Positions 6,752-29,910 of a stretch of DNA of 64,000 nt are shown here, in pieces. A model generated the notes under the pieces. That model had not been told where the DNA came from and did no database searches. It worked only from the letters and a program-made list of their open reading frames with translations. The DNA is taken from contig PDSF01000035.1 of the NCBI GenBank assembly GCA_002748355.1, positions 14,004-78,003 on the forward strand. The letters are read 5' to 3'. A program made the position numbers and the translations under genes. The DNA is from Planctomycetota bacterium (GTDB lineage Bacteria; Planctomycetota; UBA1135; GCA-002748355). Position 1 is the stretch's first letter, and each line of letters starts with the position of its first letter.

Positions 6752-8182
6752 TCACCGCTTCCCGGTCAGCACCACCATGCGTGAGATCTTGAAGAGCTGG
6801 GCCCCGTGTCCGGCCAAGTCCATGCCCTCGCCGCGAATCCCGATCTCCATGCCAACGAACTCCAAGAGATCGTAGCGGTCGCCCTCGACATCGAGCCAGG
6901 CCACCGTCTTCCCGCCCTTCGCCAGGCGATAGGCACTCGGGCCGTTACTGCCCGGGCGATACTGCAGCCAGCCGACGAGGGCAAAGCGACGCTTGGGTGA
7001 AAGGGTGCGAAGAGCTGCCGGTTGCGGCTCGGACTCAATGGGCTTGACCGGCTCGATCAAAGCGATCACCGCCTCCATGCGCAGCTCGATCTCATTGAGC
7101 GAATCCAGCAGCTTCTTGGCCTGAGTCTTTTGGCTCTCTGTCGCGAGCTCGATGCCATCAAGCTCGGTAAGCAGCTCGTTGGCACGCTTCTTCGCGTCTT
7201 CGAGTACGGGTAAATACGCCTTGACCTCGGCCCCCTGCTTGCGTTCTGCCCCCTTCAGTACCACCTTCTGCAGCTGGCGGAACTCGGCGAAGAGCGAACG
7301 CTGCTTTTGCTTCCAAGTATTGAGGAGGGCACGCTGGCGGCGCTCCTCGGCGATACGCTCTTGAGCCTCTCTCCAGCGCGCTTCCTGAGCCGCGATCTGC
7401 GCCTTAGCACCCGCGTGCAGCGACTCATCGGGAATACGATCGATCAAGCTTGGAAGCTTCGCCGCCTTGGGGTCGACCGCCAAGAGCTTGCCGGCCTCTT
7501 CGATCAAGCTCGTCGGCACAAAGGCCCCCACTTCGTGATCGCTGAGCACCTTCACCCAGGACTCGGAGAGCTTCCTCCCATCGACCGGACTGAGGACTCG
7601 AACGCGAGTCCCCTTGGGCAGCATCATGACCGGGGTCTCGGCAGTCTCCGGCTTGGGACGATAACGGAACGAGACACCCGAGCCCGTGGTGCGGGCATAG
7701 CCATCGCCAGTGAGCTCTAAATAACGCCCGTAGACATAGCCCTGCATTCCGCCCAGCACGCCGACACGGCGGAAGCCATGTTGCGCCTTCTCATCGAGGA
7801 CAACGAAGAGGGTTCCAACGGCAAAAGGCCCAGCAACCTTGGGCGCCAGGTCTTTGTTCTCGTAGAGATACAGCGGGGTTTCGACCGTGCTACGCACCAG
7901 CCGCCGTTCCTGCAAGCCAGGCTTGACCTGGTCACGAGAGGATTCTCCCTTCAGGCCCGGCATAGAGCGATTTGCCTTCTGGCCAGCGCCAGCTTCCCGC
8001 GATTTCGGCGCAGCGGCGGCAGGGCTCTTGGGAGCCTCACCCGCCGTACGCACGGACGGAAAGGCAGAGCCAGCACGTCCGGGGTCCTGAGAAGCGGGAT
8101 CTTGAGAGGCCCATGCGTTACCAGCGCCAAAGCTGAGACAGGCGGCGAGTAGCCCAGTGGCTACAGAGATGTGTTCGTTCAT
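6752..8182 (-). CDS. Secreted hypothetical protein (SH3-like beta segments plus a long coiled coil)
   Basis: ATG at 8182 gives MNEHISVATGLLAACLSFGAGNAWA (signal peptide). The central region is heptad-like and rich in K/E/Q/R (AQIAAQEARWREAQERIAEERRQRALLNTWKQKQ...). Function unknown. Confidence 0.65.
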   Translation of the reverse strand: MNEHISVATGLLAACLSFGAGNAWASQDPASQDPGRAGSAFPSVRTAGEAPKSPAAAAPKSREAGAGQKANRSMPGLKGESSRDQVKPGLQERRLVRSTVETPLYLYENKDLAPKVAGPFAVGTLFVVLDEKAQHGFRRVGVLGGMQGYVYGRYLELTGDGYARTTGSGVSFRYRPKPETAETPVMMLPKGTRVRVLSPVDGRKLSESWVKVLSDHEVGAFVPTSLIEEAGKLLAVDPKAAKLPSLIDRIPDESLHAGAKAQIAAQEARWREAQERIAEERRQRALLNTWKQKQRSLFAEFRQLQKVVLKGAERKQGAEVKAYLPVLEDAKKRANELLTELDGIELATESQKTQAKKLLDSLNEIELRMEAVIALIEPVKPIESEPQPAALRTLSPKRRFALVGWLQYRPGSNGPSAYRLAKGGKTVAWLDVEGDRYDLLEFVGMEIGIRGEGMDLAGHGAQLFKISRMVVLTGKR

Positions 8183-18946: not shown

Positions 18947-21900
18947 TTAGAGCTCGGCCAGAAGGTAGCGCTGGCTGCGCCGTGCCCCCACGGCTCGGAG
19001 TCGGCCCTCCGCAACGAAGCGCTGCAGATCTCGACTCGCAGTCCTCCGGCTGACCCCGAGCAAACGGCAGTATTCCTTGGGGCGAATCCCCTCCTCGGGT
19101 GCACGATGCTTCAGCTCTTCGAGAAGTCGAACCAGGCGATGCTGCAGCCCTTTCTCCCCCACGAGGTCTGAGACCGGCCCAGTCGGAGGCGAACGACGCG
19201 AGCCTCCGACTCCGAGCTGGGGGGCCGGCAGGTCCTGCGCCCCCACCTCTTCGAGTTCGAGATCTTCCGCCTCGACGAAATGCCCCCGGGCCAGAACCAG
19301 GGCTCGCATAACGACATTCCGGAGTTCACGAACATTCCCCGGCCAAGGATGGCGGTAGAGCCGGTCCAAGGCCCCGGGGCTGAACTTCCGGGCCTCCTCC
19401 CCGAATTCGCGCCGGAAGAACTCGACGAGGTCCGGGATCTCCATCTTGCGTTCGCGAAGCGGGGGAACCTGGAGCTGCACCCCCTGGAGCCGGTAGTACA
19501 AGTCCTCGCGGAAACGCCCCTCTTCGAGCAAGGCGCTCAGATCACGATGGGTGGCAGCGAAGAGCCGGACGTCAACCCGAATCGACTCCTGGCCCCCCAC
19601 CCTTTGGAACTCACCCGACTGCAAGACACGCAGCAGCTTTGCCTGAACCTGGTAGGGCAGCTCCCCAATCTCATCGAGAAAGAGGCTGCCCCCATCCGCG
19701 CTCTCGAAGAGACCGCGTTTGCGTTCGCTGGCGCCGGTAAAGGCCCCCTGCTCGTGGCCGAAGAGTTCAGACTCAAGCAGCCCCCCGGGAATCGCCGCGC
19801 AGTTGACCTTCACCAAGGGAGCATCCCTTCGCTCGCTAAAAGCGTGGAGCCTGTCGACGACGATCTCCTTGCCCGTCCCGGTTTCGCCAACAACCAATAC
19901 GGGGATCTGAGTGCTCGCGACCCGCTCGATCTTATCGAGCAGCTCCCGCATGACCGACGAGGCCCAGACGGCTCCCGCAGTCTCGATCGGGCTGGTGGAG
20001 AGATCGCTCGCAGCTGCTGCCGAAGAATCCTCGGGCTCAGGCCGTGCGCGCCGGCGCTCCAAGCTGTCGAGGAGGAAGGCTGCCGAACCGCCGTCCTCGG
20101 GAAACACCACCGCCTCACCGAGAATCCGGCAACTGGCCCCAGAGTCCAGGGCCAGACCTTCGAGCAGCCCCCGGAGCATGCGCAGGGTGCGACGCCCCTC
20201 CTCGGCCCCTGTGCCCGGCAGGAGCAGTTCGAAGACCGCCAGCCCAGTGCGGCCGGCCACACCGTGCTCGGGCAAGTTCTCGTCAATCTCCGCCCCGAGT
20301 CGGCCCAATAGATGGTCAAAGAACTCCTCGCCGAGACTGCTGCGCAAGCTGGCGGCATCCTCGATCTCCAGGCGCAGCAATGTGGCCAAGTCTCCCGAAC
20401 GCTGCGAGCGCTCGAGTTCCTGCGCCAAACGGCGGCGAAAGTAGCGCCGCACCGCGAGGCCGGTCGCCCCGTCCTCGATCGCCAACCTGTAGATCCGAGC
20501 CGTCTCAGCTGCACTGGCCAGCTGCTGCAACAAGGCCTGGACATGCTCAAACTCGATGTCACGACCCCAGTGACCGCGCACTCCCACCAGCACCGCTCCC
20601 TGAACCCGCTCCTTGATCCGCAGCGGCAGGACCAGGATGCGCCCCGCTCCCACCAAGGCAGGGAAGCCGGCCAGGCCAGCCCCCTGCCCCAGAAGCAGCT
20701 CGCAGGGCCCTCCCGCACTCAGCACCTGATGGGCCAAGGCCCCGTGGCGAGAGATATTGCGCGGCCCTTCGGCCTCGCCAAAAAGCCGCAGGTCTCCACT
20801 CTCGCGATCGAGAAGGAGGAGCATCCCTGAGTCCGCCCCACAAGCTTCCAGACAGAGTTCAAGACCGCGCTCGGCCACCCGCTCCAGCTCCAAGGTCGAA
20901 CCCAGATCCCGAATCGCGCTATTGGTTCGGTCGAGCTGGGTCACCCTCTCGCGAAGCTCTGCGGTCATGCTGCCGAAGGCGCGGTTCAGGCCCGCGACCT
21001 CGTCCTGGCCGCCGAGGGGAGGAACCTCCAGAGCCAGGTCACCGGCCGCAATGCGGCGGGCCATCAGGGAGAGTCGCTCCATGGGCCGGGAGACTCGCTC
21101 CGTCAGCGACCAGGCCAGGAAGAGACTCAGCATGAGGAGGAAGCCAACAAGCACGACGAAGAAGCGCCGCAGCGGCACCGACTCGCCCCAGGGCGCGAGG
21201 GTCGCCCCCCGGAAGGGCCGGCTGACCCCCAGCATCCCCAGCATCTTCCCCGTGGGGTCCCGAAGCAGGCTAAAAGCTGCGAGTCGCCCCCCACCGCTCT
21301 TCAGCAACTCGACATGGCTCCCCGGACTGGCCCGCAGCTGCTCAAGCACCGCCCGTCTCTCGGCCAGGGCTCCGGGCAAGCGCGAGCTGTCCGAGGCGTC
21401 CCCAGCAACGACAAGGGGATAGCCATCGAGGTCGTAGAGCCCGAGTTCGCCATCGATGGCCAGGGATTGCAGCCATTCGGCATCCAGCACCCGCCCCAGG
21501 GAAACTCGCAGCCCCTGTCCAGGCCCGCGCTCCAGCTCGGCACGCGCACCGAGGACCAGGCTGCCCCAGCGCAGATAAAGTCCCGAACCCGCACCCAGAG
21601 GGCGATCCCCAAGGCGGCGACTGCGCTCGCGATCCCAAACTCGCACAGCCCGCTCTTCACCACCCGTCGGAGGCAAACGCAGGATCAGAAAGCTGTCGGG
21701 GTGCCAGTCACTGGGACGAGCGAGCTCGAGACCCTCACGGGCACGTGCCAGCACATCGTCTCGCTTCGCAGAATCGGCGTATTCGGCAAGGCTGTCGCCA
21801 AGGCTGCGCAGCAGACTGCGCGCGCCCTTCTCCAGCTCAGCGCGCCCCTCATCCAAGCGCTCTTCGAGCTTGCTGAGACCGCTGAGAGCATGCTCTTCTT

Positions 21901-24583
21901 GTTGCTTCCGCTCCTGCCCCTCCAAGATCTGAACGAGGAAGAGGGCCAGCAATAGGAGCGGAAGCACCCCCGCCACGAGGAAGAGGCCACCGAGTTGGAA
22001 GCGCAGGCTAAAGCGCCCCCAGAACAGCTCGGAGGCAAAAACCAGCAGGAGGGCTAAGGCGAGCACAGCGACCGCAACGCTGCTGCGGAAGAGGTTGCGG
22101 CTGAGAGTCGCCCGGCTGTCGTCCGGGATCGACAGGGCCAAGACCGCATCCCCCCAGACCTCGCTGTCGAGGCTGAGAAAGGCGTCGTAGCTGTCACCCT
22201 GGGAGACCAATTGGTTCCGGGTCAGCACCAGAGACTCACTCTCCAGCGAGCGCGCCAGATCGGCATCCAGACTCAGGCCTTTGACCTCAAGCTCGCGAGG
22301 GCCCGCTGTTAGTTGCCGTTGCCGAAAGACAAAGCAGTTGGCCCGCGAGACATCCTCAAGCCAGTCGGCACGCAAGTGACGCTCCCCCGCGCGACCGCTG
22401 GCGACGAAGGCCGCGTCATCTCGACTCACCGCCTGCGGGCCTCGGGTGCGAACGAAAACGATCTCACGCACCCGGATGGCGTAGGGGGAGCTGCTCTCCA
22501 GGCTCATTTCCTGCAACTCGCCGGGCGCTCCAAAGGCCAACTCGAGGGCGGGCGTCATCCGGGCACCGCCGTCTCGGCCCTCCCACTCGTAGGCGATGCG
22601 GGCGAGGCCTGCTTCACCGAGTCGCTCGAGTTCGGAGTTCGCACTCATGTCGCGGGCGAAGATCTCCCGCTGGTGCCGGAGTTCGAAAACCTGCTCGGGA
22701 CGCCCCTTGCCCCGTCGCTTGAACTGCACTCGGACCCGCCCCACCGTGAGGCCATCGGAGACCCCACTGAAGGCCGGCCCCTCGAGCCCTTCGACGAAGA
22801 GCCAGAGTCCTGTCACATCCTTTTGAGCTTTGGGCAAAGGCAGCTTGCGCTTTTGGCCTGGCAGGAGCAGGAAGCCGGCGAGCTCCGGGTTCTCGCCTCG
22901 GAGCACCGACGGGACACCGATCTTCGAGACGGCTCCCAACCAGAGAGGCTCGGCTTTGGCTGTGCTCGCGCCCCGCCTAACGGCCGCCCCCTCCAGGCGC
23001 AGCCCCAAGCTGTCGGAAGCGAGTAGGAAGGCGCTGCTGCCCGCGGGGACTTTGAGCTCGGCGGCAAAGCGTGGCCTGGTCACTCCGAATCGCGGCAGTT
23101 CGGGCAGGGCAATGAGCGGAGGCTCTTGCTCCTCCTCTCCCTCTGAACTCTCGAAGCGGAGTCGTATGCTCGGCTCTTCGCCCATGCGGAACTCTCCCGG
23201 CTCTTGCGAGAGCAGGAGCACAAGCACGTCTCCGGCACCGTCGCTCACAAAGCCGAAGCGCTGCGCTTCTTGGCCCAAGGGCATGGCGTAGACCCGAAAC
23301 GAGGCATCGAGTGTCTCCGAATGTTCCGCCCCGAGCCCCATCAGCTCTGGCGCCAGCTCGGTAAAACTCAAGAAGTCCTGGGCCACTGGCAACTGCAGCG
23401 CTCGCCCGCCGAGCAGCTCAATGAGTGGACCGTCCCGGCTCTCGCCTCGCAGTTCCGCAAGCCCGCCCTCCTCCAGCTGCGGCAGCCGTTCTTGCATGCG
23501 AGCGGCCAGCCCGCGGAGATCCTCGAATCGCCCCGAGTCATAGACCCCGAGCACGAGACTCGGCAGCAACCAAGCCGAGATCGCCACTGCCCCGAGGACC
23601 AAGGTCCAAAGCTTCGCCTGTCTAGTGCTCTCGACGAGGAGACGCCGAACGCTTCGCCGCGCCAGCACAAGGAGGGCAAGGAGGCAGAGCCCTAAGAGCA
23701 GGTAGAACAGAGCGCTTTGCAGTACGCGCAGCCAAGCCCCGGCGTCGCCAGCCTCAGCTTCGAGTATCGACGGCCCTACGAAGCGCAAACGCCCAAAGCT
23801 ACTGGTGCGGTCGATCGGTGAACGATGGCCGCTCCAGACCAGGTAGTTGTAGCTATCACCCGGCCTGTCCCGGTCGCCCAGAGCCAGGTTGAAGCCAATC
23901 TCGCGAGCCCCAGGAGAAAGCTGAGGCAGATTGTGCAAAGGGATGGCGACTTCTAGATAACAGACCCTGCGTTCGAAGCGCCGCGCGATTCGGATTCCGC
24001 TGAGACCCCGGTCGGCCATCACCGGCTGACTCAGCTCTTGCGTCTCGAGCGGGAGCATGTCAATCGCCGCCCAACGGCGCTCATTGCCGAAGGGGATCAG
24101 CAAGACCTGCAGGTCGTCGTCATCGAAACGCTCCTTGCCCGGACCGTCATCCCGCAAGTCGCAGTCAAAAAAGAGCTCGATGACATCACCGCTTTCCCAG
24201 CTCTCAAAGGCACGCGGTGCCGTCGGCCGCTGGTCGCGGAGTTCGCAGAACAGATATAAGTGGCTACGGTCATAGAGCAGCCGCACGCGGACCGAGGCGT
24301 CTTTGGGGCCCCGCCAATTGAGGTGCCCAGTCTCCACCAACTGCTCGCGGCGCTCCAGGACGATGGCGGGCGCGTCGGCCCACTCCCGGTCATGGGCATC
24401 GAGTTTCGGCGCTTGCTCGATGAAGGGCAGCTCCACCAAGCGCCGAACTCCGGTTTGGGCTGCGACCCCAAAGGAGAAGAGCAATAGGAAGAGAACGACC
24501 CTGAGCTGAAAACGAAACACGCCGCATTCGAAGAGAAGCGGCGTGTGTAACGGCGTTCGTTCCATAGCGGCTTGTGGGCTCAC
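18947..24583 (-). CDS. Giant membrane-integral sigma-54-dependent transcriptional activator (bEBP) with CBM9/DOMON-like, HAMP, GAF, degenerate GGDEF-like, AAA+ and C-terminal wHTH regions
   Basis: 1878 aa. The AAA+ core has Walker A GETGTGKE, the sigma-54 contact loop GAFTGA, Walker B SLFLDEIGEL and RVGG. HAMP-like: RPMERLSLMARRIAAGDL...EVAGLNRAFGSMTAEL. The GGDEF-domain opening DGATGLAVRRYF is present but has no GGDEF/GGEEF motif. About 6 hydrophobic segments lie near aa 24-42, 288-308, 325-346, 835-853, 863-886 and 1141-1160. C-terminal HTH: YCRLLGVSRRTASRDLQRFVAEGRL. Confidence 0.85.
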   Translation of the reverse strand: MSPQAAMERTPLHTPLLFECGVFRFQLRVVLFLLLFSFGVAAQTGVRRLVELPFIEQAPKLDAHDREWADAPAIVLERREQLVETGHLNWRGPKDASVRVRLLYDRSHLYLFCELRDQRPTAPRAFESWESGDVIELFFDCDLRDDGPGKERFDDDDLQVLLIPFGNERRWAAIDMLPLETQELSQPVMADRGLSGIRIARRFERRVCYLEVAIPLHNLPQLSPGAREIGFNLALGDRDRPGDSYNYLVWSGHRSPIDRTSSFGRLRFVGPSILEAEAGDAGAWLRVLQSALFYLLLGLCLLALLVLARRSVRRLLVESTRQAKLWTLVLGAVAISAWLLPSLVLGVYDSGRFEDLRGLAARMQERLPQLEEGGLAELRGESRDGPLIELLGGRALQLPVAQDFLSFTELAPELMGLGAEHSETLDASFRVYAMPLGQEAQRFGFVSDGAGDVLVLLLSQEPGEFRMGEEPSIRLRFESSEGEEEQEPPLIALPELPRFGVTRPRFAAELKVPAGSSAFLLASDSLGLRLEGAAVRRGASTAKAEPLWLGAVSKIGVPSVLRGENPELAGFLLLPGQKRKLPLPKAQKDVTGLWLFVEGLEGPAFSGVSDGLTVGRVRVQFKRRGKGRPEQVFELRHQREIFARDMSANSELERLGEAGLARIAYEWEGRDGGARMTPALELAFGAPGELQEMSLESSSPYAIRVREIVFVRTRGPQAVSRDDAAFVASGRAGERHLRADWLEDVSRANCFVFRQRQLTAGPRELEVKGLSLDADLARSLESESLVLTRNQLVSQGDSYDAFLSLDSEVWGDAVLALSIPDDSRATLSRNLFRSSVAVAVLALALLLVFASELFWGRFSLRFQLGGLFLVAGVLPLLLLALFLVQILEGQERKQQEEHALSGLSKLEERLDEGRAELEKGARSLLRSLGDSLAEYADSAKRDDVLARAREGLELARPSDWHPDSFLILRLPPTGGEERAVRVWDRERSRRLGDRPLGAGSGLYLRWGSLVLGARAELERGPGQGLRVSLGRVLDAEWLQSLAIDGELGLYDLDGYPLVVAGDASDSSRLPGALAERRAVLEQLRASPGSHVELLKSGGGRLAAFSLLRDPTGKMLGMLGVSRPFRGATLAPWGESVPLRRFFVVLVGFLLMLSLFLAWSLTERVSRPMERLSLMARRIAAGDLALEVPPLGGQDEVAGLNRAFGSMTAELRERVTQLDRTNSAIRDLGSTLELERVAERGLELCLEACGADSGMLLLLDRESGDLRLFGEAEGPRNISRHGALAHQVLSAGGPCELLLGQGAGLAGFPALVGAGRILVLPLRIKERVQGAVLVGVRGHWGRDIEFEHVQALLQQLASAAETARIYRLAIEDGATGLAVRRYFRRRLAQELERSQRSGDLATLLRLEIEDAASLRSSLGEEFFDHLLGRLGAEIDENLPEHGVAGRTGLAVFELLLPGTGAEEGRRTLRMLRGLLEGLALDSGASCRILGEAVVFPEDGGSAAFLLDSLERRRARPEPEDSSAAAASDLSTSPIETAGAVWASSVMRELLDKIERVASTQIPVLVVGETGTGKEIVVDRLHAFSERRDAPLVKVNCAAIPGGLLESELFGHEQGAFTGASERKRGLFESADGGSLFLDEIGELPYQVQAKLLRVLQSGEFQRVGGQESIRVDVRLFAATHRDLSALLEEGRFREDLYYRLQGVQLQVPPLRERKMEIPDLVEFFRREFGEEARKFSPGALDRLYRHPWPGNVRELRNVVMRALVLARGHFVEAEDLELEEVGAQDLPAPQLGVGGSRRSPPTGPVSDLVGEKGLQHRLVRLLEELKHRAPEEGIRPKEYCRLLGVSRRTASRDLQRFVAEGRLRAVGARRSQRYLLAEL

Positions 24584-24616
24584 AAGCCGGAAGGATAGTC
24601 CCGGTCGCTCAGAGAA

Positions 24617-24841
24617 TCAGCATGTCTGTAGGACCTGTACTTCGCGGGCGTGCCAACCCTTCTCGCCCTTGATGACTCCAAAGCAGACCGCTTGGCCGTC
24701 TTCGAGGACCTTGTAGCCCTCACCGGAAATATTGCTGTAGTGGATGAAGATGTCTTCATCGAACTGATCGCAACGAAGAAAGCCGAAGCCCTTGCGGTTA
24801 TCGAACCACTTCACGTGGCCCTGAATGTTCTCAGTGTTCAT
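24617..24841 (-). CDS. Cold-shock domain protein (CspA family)
   Basis: 74 aa. RNP1-like KGFGFL and RNP2-like DIFIHYS, with the typical opening GHVKWFDNRKGFGFL. Confidence 0.95.
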   Translation of the reverse strand: MNTENIQGHVKWFDNRKGFGFLRCDQFDEDIFIHYSNISGEGYKVLEDGQAVCFGVIKGEKGWHAREVQVLQTC

Positions 24842-25294
24842 TTCAACGCCTGTTCACAGAACCAAAAGCATCCGAAGCTAGGGGCCAGTCAGCCCTGCTG
24901 AGCGAGCGCTTCGGAGCACAGGACTCTCTTCGGATGGCCGGTGAAGGACGTTGAGCAGGGATGCTAGAAAGCCGGAGAAAAAGAGAGGATTCTCTCGAAA
25001 GACGAAAGAACCCCCTTAACAAAAGGGGTCAGGGAGTATCCGAAAATCGGCCACTATAATAAAAAAATGGCTCTTGAGATCCTCGACGCAGGTACTGGAA
25101 CAGCCAAGGCAAGACAGCTAGCAGTATCGCAGCATGGGATACCGCGCCAGGCTCTGGCCTCGATGGGCCTGGACAAGGCTGGTGAATCATCTGATTCGCC
25201 GAAAACCTCACCCAAGCCAATCGGGCTTTTTGCCGCAGGAGCCTGCGGCCGTACGAAGGCATCGTGGGCCCCTCAGACCGGCAACTGAGCGCCA

Positions 25295-25387
25295 AGTCAT
25301 TAGCGCCCAGTCAGCCCAGTCATTAGCGCCCAGTCATTAGCGCCCAGTCATTAGCGCCCAGTCATTAGCGCCCAGTCATTAGCGACT
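25295..25387. repeat. 14-bp tandem repeat (plus strand AGTCATTAGCGCCC; minus strand GGGCGCTAATGACT), about 6.5 copies, overlapping the pnp stop codon
   Basis: Copies start at 25295, 25318, 25332, 25346, 25360 and 25374, with a 9-nt partial unit at 25309. The last copy contains the pnp TAA (25381..25379). On the minus strand every unit carries TAATGA. Confidence 0.9.
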
Positions 25388-28300
25388 GCGCCGGGGGCGA
25401 CCCGCATCGCCTTCGTCACGGCGACTACGGCGACGCGGGCGGGCATCTTCGTCCTCATCGCGGCGGCTGCGGCTACGCGGACGAAGCTCCTCACCCTCGT
25501 CTCGGCGACTGCGACGACGAGGACGAACATCCTCACCCTCATCGCGGCGACTGCGGCTACGCGGACGAACATCCTCACCCTCATCGCGGCGACTGCGACG
25601 ACGCGGACGAACATCCTCGTCCTCATCGCGGCGGCTACGGCCACGCGGACGAACATCCTCATCCTCATCGCGGCGACTGCGACGACGAGGACGAACATCC
25701 TCATCCTCATCGCGGCGACTGCGACGACGAGGACGAACATCCTCATCCTCATCGCGGCGGCTACGGCTACGCGGGCGAACATCCTCATCCTCATCGCGGC
25801 GGCTGCGACGACGCGGACGAACATCCTCATCCTCGTCACGACGGCTACGACGACGCGGACGAACATCCTCATCCTCGTCACGACGGCTACGGCTACGCGG
25901 ACGAAGCTCCTCATCCTCATCGCGGCGGCTGCGACGACGCGGGCGGACATCTTCGTCCTCGTCGCGGCGGCTGCGCCGGCGCGGACGGGCCTCTTCCGCA
26001 CGCGCTCCCTGGTGCTTGCGTCCACGGGCGGGACGATCGTCCTTCTCGCGATCCTCCCGACCGCGACCCTGACGAGATCGGCCACGTGGCTTCGGAGCAA
26101 TCTCCTCCACCTCTTCGGGAAGCTCACCGTCAAGGATCTCTTCCTCGACCTCGTCGAGAGCATCCTCTTCGACGATCTCTTCGTCGACGTCGATTTCTTC
26201 GTCGACTTCAATCTCCTCGCCGAAGTCTTCGTCGACTTCGCTCAAGTCCTCCTCGTTATCCAGCGGCAAATCGGACTCCTCCTCGGCTCCGAGCAGAGCC
26301 TTACGCGAGAGCTTGATCTTGCCGAGAGGATCAACATCAAGGACCTTCACCTGGATTTCGTCGCCGATATCGCAGACCTCGTTGACCGAGCGCACGAACT
26401 CATCGGAGAGTTCGCTCACGTGACAGAGCCCCTCCTGCCCCGGAAGGATCTCCAGGAAGGCACCGAACTCCTTGATGGCCACGACTCGCCCGGTGTAGGT
26501 CTTACCGACTTCGACTTCGGCAGTGATCTCCTCGATCCGCTTCATCGCGGCCTCGACCTTCGGAGCGTCGAGACCGGCGACCGTGACGGTTCCGTCATCG
26601 CTGACGCTGATCTTGGTATTGGTCTCTTCCTGCAGCCCACGGATGTGCTTGCCACCAGGACCGATGACCACACCGATCTTCTCGGGGTTGATCTTCAGGC
26701 GCTCCAGGCGCGGAGCATGCTGGGAGAGCTTGGCACGCGGCCGACGCAGGGCCGAGAGCATCTCCTTGAGGATCTGGATGCGCCCATCGCGGGCCTGGCC
26801 AAGAGCCTTCTTAAGGAGGGCGCGGGTCAGTCCCTTGCACTTGATGTCCATCTGCAGAGCGGTGATCCCGTTCTGCGTGCCGGTGACCTTGAAGTCCATG
26901 TCACCGCAGTGGTCTTCCGAGCCCTGAATGTCGGAAAGGATGGCGGCCTTGCGTCCTTCCTTGACCAGGCCCATGGCGATCCCTGCGACCGGCTGCTGGA
27001 TGGGGACGCCCGCATCCATCAAGGCCAGGCAGCCACCGCAGACGCTCGCCATCGAGCTCGAGCCGTTGGACTCGAGAATCTCGCTGACCAGACGAATCGT
27101 GTAGGGGAAGTCTTCGGGCTTGGGCAAAACCGGCTCGAGAGCGCGCTCGGCAAGGGCACCATGGCCCAGCTCGCGGCGACTCGTGCCGCGCATCATCCGA
27201 ACCTCTCCCACGCAGAACGGCGGGAAGTTGTAGTGCAGGAGGAACTTCTTCCGCACCTCATCTTCGAGCCCATCGATGATCTGCTCGTCATCGACCGTAC
27301 CGAGGGTCGTGACCACGAGGGCCTGCGTTTCCCCACGGGTAAAGACGGCACTGCCATGGAGCCGGTCGAAGACCGAGGTCTCGATGGTGATCGGGCGGAT
27401 CTCCTTGTGCTTGCGCCCGTCCGTGCGGCGCCCGCTGAGGATGGCCTCACGCTCGGACTCTTTCTTGAGATCCCCGAGCTTGGACTTCAGATACTTCATG
27501 TTGTCGGCGCGCTCTTCGTCATCGAGCTTCGCCCACTTCTTCTCGAAGTATGCCTTGGCCTCGTCGGTGACTTCGGAAACGGCCTGGCCGCGCTGCTTCT
27601 TGCCGCCCTCACTTGAGGTGGCGTCGTAGATCGCGTCGTAGAACTTCTTCCGAAGCTCCTTATCGATGCTCGGGTTATCCGCGGCCTTTTCGAAGACCTG
27701 CTTTTCTTTGCCGGCCTTCTTGCGCAGCTGCTCGATCGCATCGATCACCGTCTTGATCGCCGCATGCCCCTGCTCGAGGGCCTCGAGCATCAGGTCTTCG
27801 GAGACGCCGGCGGCCCCGGCCTCGACCATGGTGACCGCATCCTTGGTAGCGGCCATCGTCAAGTTGAGCTGGCTCCTACCGCTGCTGATGTCCTGGACGC
27901 TGGGCAGGATCGTGATCTTGTCGTCGACGTAGCCCACGCGCACGGCGCCCATGGGCGCCTCGAAGGGCAGCGAACCGATCCAGACCGCGGCGAAAGCGCC
28001 GATCATCGCAACCGTGTCAGGGTCGACATCATGGTCGACGCAGAGCACGTTGCAGAGCACCTGCACCTCGTTCTTGTAGCCGTCGGGGAACATCGGGCGC
28101 AGCGGCCTATCGATGAGCCGGCAGGTCAGAACCTCCTTATTGGTCGGCCTAGCCTCGCGCTTGAAGAAGCCCCCGGGGAACTTGCCGGCAGCGTAGGTCT
28201 TCTCGCGGTAATCCACCGTCAACGGGAAAAAGTCCAAACCCGGACGGGGGTCAGCGCCTTGCGCCGTGACGAGCACCGAGGTGCCCCCCAATGTGGCGAG

Positions 28301-28405
28301 CACGGCTGCGTCAGCCAGCTTCGCCCACTTGCCGGTCTCCAGTGTCAGGGTGCGCCCTGCGAGATCGGTCTCAATCTTGATGTGCTTCAAGTCTTCTATA
28401 CTCAC
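25379..28405 (-). CDS. pnp: Polyribonucleotide nucleotidyltransferase (PNPase) with a ~300-aa C-terminal acidic and Arg/Asp/Glu-repeat extension
   Basis: Two RNase PH-like halves, a KH domain ([24 protein letters not shown]) and an S1 domain ([28 protein letters not shown]), located downstream of rpsO. The probable start is GTG at 28405 ([28 protein letters not shown]), with AAGGA 4 nt upstream. The ORF track extends to 28615. Confidence 0.9.
   Translation of the reverse strand: [1008 protein letters not shown]
25394..25981 (-). repeat. 14 tandem copies of a 42-bp coding repeat (14-aa unit [14 protein letters not shown] and variants) inside pnp
   Basis: Counted in the translation: [42 protein letters not shown] ... 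[14 protein letters not shown], then RRSR-stop. The DNA copies are near-identical. Confidence 0.9.
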
Positions 28406-28781
28406 TAAGTCCTTTTCATGTGCCTCTGCACGAAGAGCGCCAAAGGGCGGACGCGCTTCGCTCCTCTGCAACACCGCGCTGCAGCGGGACCCGTGACGCT
28501 CTGGACAACTCCATTCGGAGCCGATCACGGGGCGATGACGAAAAGCGGCAGAGCGGGCCTCAGCGGCAGGCCCTGCCCTCAGAAACCTCTCGAGCCCAAA
28601 AATCTCGAGCTCCAAAAAGAGGCTGGCAGACGCGTCACCCGGACGCGTGCCCTTCGTCGATATGGCGGCCGATCACGACCGCCGATGCCCCCGTCCATCG
28701 GGGGCTCTTACTTCAAGAGAACGTTATCGAAAGCACTCTGCCCCTCGGACTTGACCGGGGAGCTGGCTTCCATTCTCTGGC

Positions 28782-29051
28782 TCAGCCGCGGATTCCGAGC
28801 TGGGCGACGATGCGCTTATATGCAGCCGCATCCTTGCGGGCGAGATACCTCATCAGGCGGTTGCGAATGCCCACCTTCCGCATCAGACCACGCCGGGAAT
28901 GGAAGTCCTTCTTGTGCCTCTTCATGTGCTCGGTCAGAGCACGGATGTCCGCAGTCAACGTCGCAATCTGCAGCTCGGAGCTGCCCGTGTCCTTTTCGTG
29001 ACGACGATACTGCGTACGGATTTCTTCGATCTGTTGGCGTTCCAGAGCCAT
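28782..29051 (-). CDS. rpsO: 30S ribosomal protein S15
   Basis: 89 aa: MALERQQIEEIRTQYRRHEKDTGSSELQIATLTADIRALTEHMKRHKKDFHSRRGLMRKVGIRNRLMRYL. Classic rpsO-pnp arrangement. Confidence 0.95.
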   Translation of the reverse strand: MALERQQIEEIRTQYRRHEKDTGSSELQIATLTADIRALTEHMKRHKKDFHSRRGLMRKVGIRNRLMRYLARKDAAAYKRIVAQLGIRG

Positions 29052-29274
29052 CGCTACATCTCCCTAGGTCACCGGCTCCACCGTCCCAGCTGCCCCGATG
29101 GGCACCGACCAGAACCGCAAAGCGGTCGAGCAGCATCCTGCTTTGATTGCGGACACTGCGAGGATTCATCCTGCACTCCATCCATGGAGCGCAGCGATTT
29201 TGGGCCAGGATACTAGAGCAGCCGTCCGCGGATGCAAGCCTGCCCTTAGGGGAAGCGGCGCAAACAGCTTGGGG

Positions 29275-29910
29275 TCAGTTCTGATGCCCAGGGAGGCGCG
29301 ACCCCAAGATCTCCGCAAGGCGTTCGATCGCCATCGGACGCCGGAGACGAACACTCGGTGGCAGATTGTCCTCCGGCCTCACGAGGCGGTTACGAGCCCG
29401 GAAGCTCCCCTTCCAGAGTTCTTTGCCGTCGGGCCCGATCAGGACCATGTGGCCAGCAGCCTTGACGTAGCCATAAGTCCCCAGCTCAAGATCATCAAAC
29501 TCTTCAAGCCAGAGCAGCAGCACGGCATCGGCGCCAAGCTCCCCCACGACGCTGACCGCGCGAGCCACCGTCCCTTCGCGATTACGATCGGGAGCTGCGA
29601 TCCGCGCCTCGGCTCCAGCCTTATCGCAAACCAAGCGATCCGAGAGCACCGAGTAGCGTGCGGAAATCAAGCTCCGCCGTAAGGCCTTGCGGAAGCGGTC
29701 GAGCTCCTCGCTGCGGAATTCGGCCCCGGAGTTGCGCGTCGGCCAGACCAGGACATCGTCGATTTTCCGCGCCCGGGCTGCATCAAAAACCGTCAGGTTG
29801 ACCCAGCCGAATTGGTCGGAGCTACCCTGGGTCGAACAGCCGGTCGTCAGGCCGAGACTCAGGGTCAGCAACAGGAGCAAGGAGTAACGAAGGATTTGGG
29901 ACTGGATCAT
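29275..29910 (-). CDS. Putative lipoprotein (hypothetical)
   Basis: ATG at 29910 gives MIQSQILRYSLLLLLTLSLGLTTGCSTQ (lipobox LTTGC). No functional motif recognised. Confidence 0.6.
   Translation of the reverse strand: MIQSQILRYSLLLLLTLSLGLTTGCSTQGSSDQFGWVNLTVFDAARARKIDDVLVWPTRNSGAEFRSEELDRFRKALRRSLISARYSVLSDRLVCDKAGAEARIAAPDRNREGTVARAVSVVGELGADAVLLLWLEEFDDLELGTYGYVKAAGHMVLIGPDGKELWKGSFRARNRLVRPEDNLPPSVRLRRPMAIERLAEILGSRLPGHQN

Follow-up and report, generated by a model that had tools for sequence, protein, structure and literature searches.

Charged and disordered extensions are known from several proteins of RNA metabolism. The Arg-rich charge blocks that the Caulobacter RNase E carries in its C-terminal domain (CTD) drive bacterial ribonucleoprotein bodies (BR-bodies), of which the polynucleotide phosphorylase (PNPase) is a client (PMC10412687). 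The C-terminal intrinsically disordered regions (IDRs) of RhlE enhance RNA binding and phase separation (PMC11260450), and the N-terminal IDR of Type II RhlB acts likewise on both (PMC13462270). The acidic CTD of Hfq autoregulates RNA binding (PMC5606850), and the nonapeptide RRRRRRSSA at the end of the cyanobacterial RNase E suffices to bind PNPase (PMC3964918). In arginine-enriched mixed-charge domains (R-MCDs), condensation depends on length and on arginine, can be tuned by net charge, and is abolished when arginine is substituted by lysine (10.1101/771592). PNPase itself is treated, in the literature that we searched, as a compact client of ~700 aa recruited by disordered RNase E scaffolds. 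Here, we analyse the PNPase gene (pnp) of an uncultured Planctomycetota bacterium, found in a stretch of 64,000 nucleotides of contig PDSF01000035.1 (hereafter the window), whose product extends far beyond its S1 domain. By analogy with the systems above, we propose with moderate confidence that this extension adds multivalent RNA binding and self-association to the enzyme, as an arginine-enriched mixed-charge disordered region.

The first-pass annotation of this DNA, made from the sequence, described an open reading frame (ORF) continuing for about 303 aa after S1 and including 14 tandem 14-aa units at 25394..25981 with a 42-bp period. Both descriptions are accurate. The pnp frame runs on for exactly 303 codons past S1 (25382..26290), to the TAA at 25379..25381, and the table of units agrees with Tandem Repeats Finder (period 42, 13.5 copies, 86% matches, score 760). 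The same annotation considered that a stop or a frameshift might lie just after S1, but the tail is in uninterrupted frame with S1, and no stop codon occurs in the pnp reading frame between S1 and 25381. All 14 units of the array are distinct in their DNA, and its longest exact internal repeat is 71 bp. Both the usual read lengths and large assembly k-mers exceed this, so the array could be bridged, and an assembler loop would have yielded identical copies; both points make such a loop unlikely. We conclude that the array is unlikely to be an artefact.

The tail is organised as an acidic block, a basic linker, and the repeat array with consensus RRRSRRDEDEDVRP, closed by a terminal RRSR (25382..25393) (Table 1). 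The acidic block, reported earlier as almost purely Asp/Glu, does exist, but this wording overstated its composition: 57% of its residues are D/E and the remainder are mainly I/V/L/G/S/P/A. Residues of I/V/L/F punctuate the block, within which there is also an EEI(x)VD mini-repeat. Every unit of the array has a proline at position 14, and the 14 units together with RRSR have a net charge of +17. The charges of the acidic block (-36) and of the linker plus array (+24) are thus roughly balanced, and over the 303 aa, where 67% of the residues are charged, the net charge per residue is -0.04. These charges are segregated well above chance, in line with the patterning noticed at first reading: the approximate kappa of the tail is 0.36, compared with 0.12 +/- 0.02 in composition-preserving shuffles (maximum 0.18). 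The array also holds the most charged 60-aa stretch of the window (0.78 versus <=0.47 elsewhere). The positive charge is specifically arginine, with a K/(K+R) ratio of 0.031 in the tail versus 0.576 in the core. Since the core is lysine-rich while the tail of the same gene is not, GC bias does not explain the preference for arginine.

We compared the tail with the published operational definition of mixed-charge domains, i.e., 60-aa windows in which the fraction of charged residues (FCR) reaches 0.7 or more and the positive-to-negative ratio is 1 +/- 0.3 (10.1101/771592, Methods). Such windows number 117 and span aa 782-995, where the R:K count of 83:2 agrees with the arginine criterion. Judged by its sequence, aa 782-995 is an arginine-enriched mixed-charge domain under this definition; its condensation is a prediction. 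The tail does not classify as an RS domain (S+R at least 0.6 per 60-aa window in Greig et al.), as 5-6 R and 1-2 S per 14 residues amount to 0.5.

The tail is also predicted to be disordered. In the AlphaFold 2 (AF2) model built with a 37-sequence alignment, residues 1-700 have a predicted local distance difference test (pLDDT) score of ~90, whereas residues 704-1003 have scores of 30-47 and no helix or strand. A single-sequence AF2 model of the KH-S1-tail segment gave a pLDDT of 39 throughout, including the folded domains, and was dropped in favour of the alignment-based one. We reject a single alpha-helix (ER/K-type) domain on account of the proline in each unit and of the lack of predicted AF2 helix beyond residue 706. 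The tail had no matches in the PDB other than artificial alphaRep repeat proteins, and these are spurious.

The differences between units of the array are mostly synonymous (proportion of synonymous differences, pS, 0.50; proportion of nonsynonymous differences, pN, 0.066; pN/pS 0.13), and 9 of the 14 codon columns show no variation other than synonymous changes. Independent arrays from other lineages gave pN/pS values of 0.19 (locus L049), 0.00 (L005), and 0.34 (L010). On this pattern of codon substitutions, the tail peptide is under purifying selection, i.e., it is selectively maintained.

To place the tail in its family, we used 128 related or representative PNPases with a parseable S1 end, a sample biased towards relatives of the window PNPase. 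Tails have fewer than 30 aa in 60 of them, 30-99 aa in 40 (mostly RGG-like), 100-199 aa in 14, and 200 aa or more in 14. The premise of the first-pass annotation that PNPase ends shortly after S1 is therefore too narrow, with tails of at least 30 aa in 68 of the 128. The long-tailed relatives include the proteins P0002, P0004, P0005, P0007, P0010, P0013, P0019, P0026, and P0132, and the loci L001, L003, L005, L008-L014, L020, L022, L049, and L052. These relatives carry tails of 100-470 aa that nearly lack K, with fractions of 0.24-0.38 for R and 0.25-0.35 for D+E. Outside the planctomycetes, long charged tails were also seen in a few representatives, e.g., P0140 with ~530 aa.

The tails of the relatives are built of tandem units, of 9, 10, 12, 13, 14, or 15 aa depending on the lineage. 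Some of these units closely match that of the window: RSRSRRDEEDRPS in P0132 (core identity 58%) and RRPRRDDEDEDRPRG, present 15 times in L049, are near-identical to it, and RDDEDRPRRSSS in L052 and DEDRPRRSSRSRD in P0004 are nearly the same. The motif [DE][DE]x(0-1)RPR occurs 11-16 times in L003, L049, and L052. Poly-Arg ends, such as ...RRRRRRPxRSRD, are frequent on long tails (the window tail ends in RPRRSR), and at least 5 R are found among the last 12 residues in 21 of the 56 tails of at least 50 aa versus 2 of the 72 shorter ones. An acidic-hydrophobic block like that of the window is present, usually close to S1, in 7 of 27 long R-rich tails, of which P0013 and L005 are one and the same sequence. 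On these comparisons, the tail of the window is the extreme of a lineage-wide continuum and not a one-off. Its closest relatives, P0001 and P0003, carry tails of 72-79 aa, so that the long array is a labile extension of a short R-rich tail that is older. The short RGG/RG-type tails of other bacterial PNPases, which are likely the ancestral state of the long ones, share with the window tail their position directly after S1, their richness in arginine and their paucity of lysine. They differ in their length (50-100 aa), their glycine content (G 0.2-0.47), and the absence of regular long-period repeats.

Other variations were seen in this family. One or more extra S1 domains follow the canonical S1 in P0017, P0020-P0025, P0028, P0029, P0045, P0136, and P0144. 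The extra S1 of P0017, P0021-P0025, P0028, P0029, and P0045 stands between a preceding poly-Gly/RGG spacer and a following glycine/arginine-rich stretch. The tails of P0007 and L001 (which is P0005-like) contain short acidic-aromatic motifs, e.g., DPDFDDIP and DPDFDELPP. In our view they recall the acidic tip at the C-terminus of SSB (DFDDDIPF), although this may be due to chance. No comparable tail region was found in the other real ORFs of the window or of the flanks of 80 related loci, and nothing in them pointed to charged low-complexity tails as a general habit of the genome. When proteins were searched with just the tail, 11 weak matches came back, mostly hypothetical or unnamed and none annotated as RNase E, probably an effect of the composition-bias filter.

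As the tail is real, predicted to be disordered, charge-segregated, arginine-specific, selected, and within the definition of an R-MCD, an added RNA-binding and self-associating module is the best reading of it. Tandem duplication would have lengthened the C-terminus of PNPase into a disordered polyampholyte of 303 aa. PNPase is a homotrimer, so that each enzyme would display three tails and 42 units. The arginine halves of these units could bind RNA as well as the acidic segments of their own and of neighbouring tails. This would result in extra multivalent RNA capture and in RNA-dependent self-association (clustering or condensation), in the mode of arginine-enriched mixed-charge domains and of the charge-block IDRs of RNase E and RhlE/RhlB. 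The S1-proximal acidic block would compensate for the net positive charge that the repeats carry and, as a tuning or autoinhibitory element comparable to the acidic CTD of Hfq, may contend with RNA for basic surfaces. A contact between the poly-Arg tip and the PNPase core is conceivable, and would recall the RRRRRRSSA peptide (PMC3964918).

Several observations weigh against this reading. We infer RNA binding, self-association or condensation, and an effect on RNA decay from composition and analogy, and a low pLDDT is a proxy for disorder. The pN/pS between units is confounded by gene conversion and by the shared ancestry of the units, even if its direction is consistent across arrays. Tail length and unit sequence turn over fast, and the short tails of the closest relatives (67-71% identity) imply that the enzyme can do without a long array. 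Just 7 of the 27 long tails have the acidic block, at variable positions. Finally, the nearest protein match is 71% identical and the nearest GTDB representative 68%, and the copy number comes from a single assembly. A metagenome scan for S1 followed by the tail pattern gave 501 pattern matches, none confirmed, and hence no independent copy of the species. The arrays of two loci from related Planctomycetota metagenome-assembled genomes (MAGs), L006 and L007, are interrupted by N-runs (masked sequence or scaffold gaps), and L006 loses the frame after the gap. Tail lengths from short-read MAGs should be treated as approximate.

The alternative that survives best, although we consider it unlikely as the main role of the tail, is that of a protein-docking scaffold, the "degradosome organised around PNPase" of the first-pass annotation. 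It is compatible with an RNA-binding, self-associating module. The acidic-hydrophobic block, the poly-Arg tip, or both would be short linear motifs for RNase E/G, a helicase, the ribosome, or another PNPase trimer. The recurrence of acidic-hydrophobic blocks and the enrichment of poly-Arg C-termini in long tails are in its favour. So are the cyanobacterial RRRRRRSSA, a precedent for an Arg-rich tip contacting the PNPase core (PMC3964918), and the action of RNase E CTDs through short linear motifs (PMC11964227). However, the window encodes no RNase E or helicase, most long tails lack the acidic block, the bulk of the tail is repetitive instead of a set of distinct motifs, and searching with the tail alone gave no informative relatives. 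A PNPase-centred degradosome is thus speculation. We are similarly doubtful that PNPase, and not RNase E, is the self-sufficient scaffold of an RNA-decay condensate in this Planctomycetota clade. If it were, the 42 arginine/acid units of the trimer and its acidic blocks would drive RNA-dependent phase separation, and cross-linking of PNPase cores or recruitment of partners would fall to the poly-Arg tip. The roles of scaffold and client known from Proteobacteria and cyanobacteria would then be inverted.

It is quite improbable, in our view, that the tail is a tolerated low-complexity expansion, in which replication slippage or unequal crossing-over inflated a short ancestral R/G/D tail into an array that has no role of its own and simply does no harm at a free C-terminus. 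Such a history would fit the range of tails in related PNPases (0 to ~530 aa, with close relatives at the short end), the lineage-specific length and sequence of the units, and the local homogenisation among them, which is typical of concerted evolution. It would also fit the presence of a second, non-coding tandem array next to the gene, which marks this locus as repeat-prone. Yet it sits poorly with the pN/pS of 0.13 here and 0-0.34 in three other lineages, with the near exclusion of lysine from the tail of a protein with a lysine-rich core, and with the absence of such regions from the other real ORFs of the window and of the flanks of the 80 related loci. Moreover, the composition and the [DE][DE]xRPR and poly-Arg-end motifs are kept across cores that are 50-68% identical. 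Lastly, an assembly or annotation artefact (an assembler loop, a collapsed or expanded copy number, or a true gene ending after S1) is very improbable: such arrays do trouble short-read MAGs, as in L006 and L007, and the databases searched hold no independent copy of the source genome, but the 14 distinct units, the 71-bp limit on exact repeats, the absence of a stop from S1 to 25381, and the equivalent in-frame tails in dozens of independent assemblies of relatives all oppose it.

Table 1. Features of the pnp locus (positions in the window).
Feature	Coordinates	Strand	Description
rpsO (ribosomal protein S15)	28782..29051	-	directly upstream of pnp; Pfam Ribosomal_S15
pnp (PNPase), coding sequence	25379..28390	-	~1003 aa plus stop; from ORF list, Pfam, and homologue alignment
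Catalytic core + KH + S1	26291..28390	-	aa 1-700; active-site residues intact; AF2 pLDDT ~90
Acidic block	26102..26290	-	63 aa, 36 D/E, no R/K, net charge -36
Basic linker	25982..26101	-	40 aa, of which 14 are basic and 7 acidic; net +7
Repeat array	25394..25981	-	14 in-register tandem 42-bp/14-aa units, consensus RRRSRRDEDEDVRP; arginine-enriched mixed-charge array
C-terminal basic end RPRRSR	25382..25399	-	matches ...RRPRRSRD / poly-Arg C-termini of related tails
TAA stop	25379..25381	-	doubles as the opening three bases of the first 14-bp TAATGACTGGGCGC unit
Cold-shock-domain protein gene (csp)	24617..24841	-	downstream of pnp, same strand; Pfam CSD

The part of the protein that precedes the tail has the features of a PNPase. 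Pfam finds two RNase_PH domains (E 1.5e-54), RNase_PH_C, KH_1, and S1, the latter ending in ...KIKLSRKALL. With the helical linker at about residues 198-318 of the AF2 secondary structure, this gives the order RNase PH - helical - RNase PH - KH - S1 of the family. The best PDB matches are PNPases from several bacteria and from human mitochondria, and cover residues 7-712 only. Residues R405/R406, S444-S446, D493, D499, and K501 are invariant in the 37-sequence PNPase alignment, so that the Arg pair, the phosphate-binding Ser triplet, the metal-binding Asp pair, and the Lys are all present. We take them, with a constant offset of +7, to be equivalent to R398/R399, S437-439, D486, D492, and K494 of Escherichia coli. 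The sequence thus appears to encode an active PNPase. The ORF list places pnp at 25379..28615 (reverse strand, 1078 aa), from the first in-frame start, TTG 28615. The Met of the homologues aligns with the TTG at 28388..28390, and an alternative start, GTG at 28403..28405, is preceded by AAGGA. The listed start is therefore probably ~75 codons too early, and the product has ~1003 aa and not 1078. The ~75 extra residues that the mechanical start adds (28391..28615, reverse strand) have no counterpart in the homologues.

Of 80 related loci, 79 have an S15 gene upstream of pnp, as in the conserved rpsO-pnp neighbourhood. The rpsO-pnp gap of ~390 nt could hold a leader and has no match to an Rfam family. 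The Rfam scan of 24400..29300 gave only sub-threshold microRNA-like matches caused by the repeats, and no RNA element. The order pnp-csp is also found in the closest GTDB relatives (csp at 7846..8037 in L001, 6791..6988 in L002, and 7384..7593 in L052), and rpsO-pnp-csp is a conserved arrangement in this subclade. Terminator-like hairpins are present between pnp and csp (~24984..25030). The window also has a very large ORF of 1878 aa (18947..24583, reverse strand). By eye, its translation suggests a sigma-54-type AAA+ activator, including a DNA-binding end, for the C-terminal part, and transmembrane and sensor-like segments within the long N-terminal part. The rest of the window is ordinary chromosome, with genes for EF-G, a secretin, MlaD/E, MreB, RodA, PBP2, Lnt, and MoeA; neither an RNase E nor a helicase gene is present.

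The non-coding array starts at the pnp stop codon itself. It consists of ~7 tandem copies of the 14-bp TAATGACTGGGCGC (25288..25384, reverse strand), four of them perfect and the others variants. Each unit holds TAA and TGA, and since its period is not a multiple of 3, the array places stops in all three frames. Allowing at most 2 mismatches, there are 8 matches to TAATGACTGGGCGC in the window versus 0.43 expected by chance, 6 of them inside the array. The repeat is not a feature of the family, being absent downstream of pnp in 17 of the 17 relatives checked, and is also absent from the metagenome collection searched. It may be the product of local slippage.

PNPase, and charge-patterned arginine-rich IDRs on RNA enzymes, are both already known in kind. 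The type of tail described here is common in relatives and yet undescribed in the literature that we searched: nothing relevant was found on PNPase tails in Planctomycetes, or on an IDR in PNPase, among the searchable papers. The homologues, where the source names them, are called simply PNPase. Here and in many Planctomycetota, PNPase bears its own long, arginine/acid, predicted disordered tail with the signature of purifying selection. These tails, with lengths of 0 to ~530 aa, varied units, and presence or absence of an acidic block, are a natural series of variants that suits the study of the tuning of an RNA enzyme by charge pattern, arginine content, and valency.

Compared with known systems, the parts of the tail have different counterparts. 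The acidic block resembles the acidic CTD of Hfq in being an acidic disordered segment beside a basic RNA-binding surface, and is a candidate nucleic-acid mimic for the tuning of RNA binding. The analogy is one of composition only, and the acidic tip of Hfq is short, as opposed to the 63 aa of the PNPase block, after which come another 240 aa of basic and mixed sequence. The ends of the PNPase tails share with the C4 nonapeptide of the cyanobacterial RNase E a run of Arg followed by small or polar residues at the extreme C-terminus (PMC3964918). In our case the motif is on PNPase itself, and the version of the window has four Arg and is interrupted. The tail as a whole is, like the IDRs of RhlE1/RhlE2 and Type II RhlB, a lineage-variable, predicted disordered extension on a conserved core of RNA metabolism. 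In the helicases, which are another enzyme class, the extension has been shown to raise RNA binding and to drive phase separation that depends on RNA.

The closest likenesses in charge are with the R-MCDs of eukaryotic nuclear speckles and with the RNase E of Caulobacter. Like the former (Greig et al., 10.1101/771592), the tail is predicted to be disordered, has an FCR of at least 0.7 with near-balanced charge, prefers arginine over lysine, is repeat-like, and has a slightly positive net charge in its array. Unlike them, it is bacterial and fused to an exoribonuclease instead of a splicing factor, and its charges come in blocks of 5-6 instead of alternating dipeptides, with a proline every 14 residues. 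If the proposed function is true, bacteria have R-rich mixed-charge domains independently of the eukaryotic speckle proteins. The C-terminal IDR of the Caulobacter crescentus RNase E (PMC10412687) is disordered and alternates Arg-rich positive and negative blocks, and this BR-body-type pattern is also that of the PNPase tail. Both enzymes are oligomeric and act in RNA decay, which would confer multivalency on their tails. Another mark of BR-body-type regions, location on RNase E with homology to RNase E CTDs, does not apply, the host being PNPase. The blocks of the window are short, regular tandem repeats of recent origin, with no known client-binding motif and no homology to the RNase E IDR. 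The host enzyme is precisely the one that in Caulobacter is a client and not a scaffold, and should its tail prove to bind RNA and to self-associate, the enzyme that organises RNA-decay condensates could differ from phylum to phylum.

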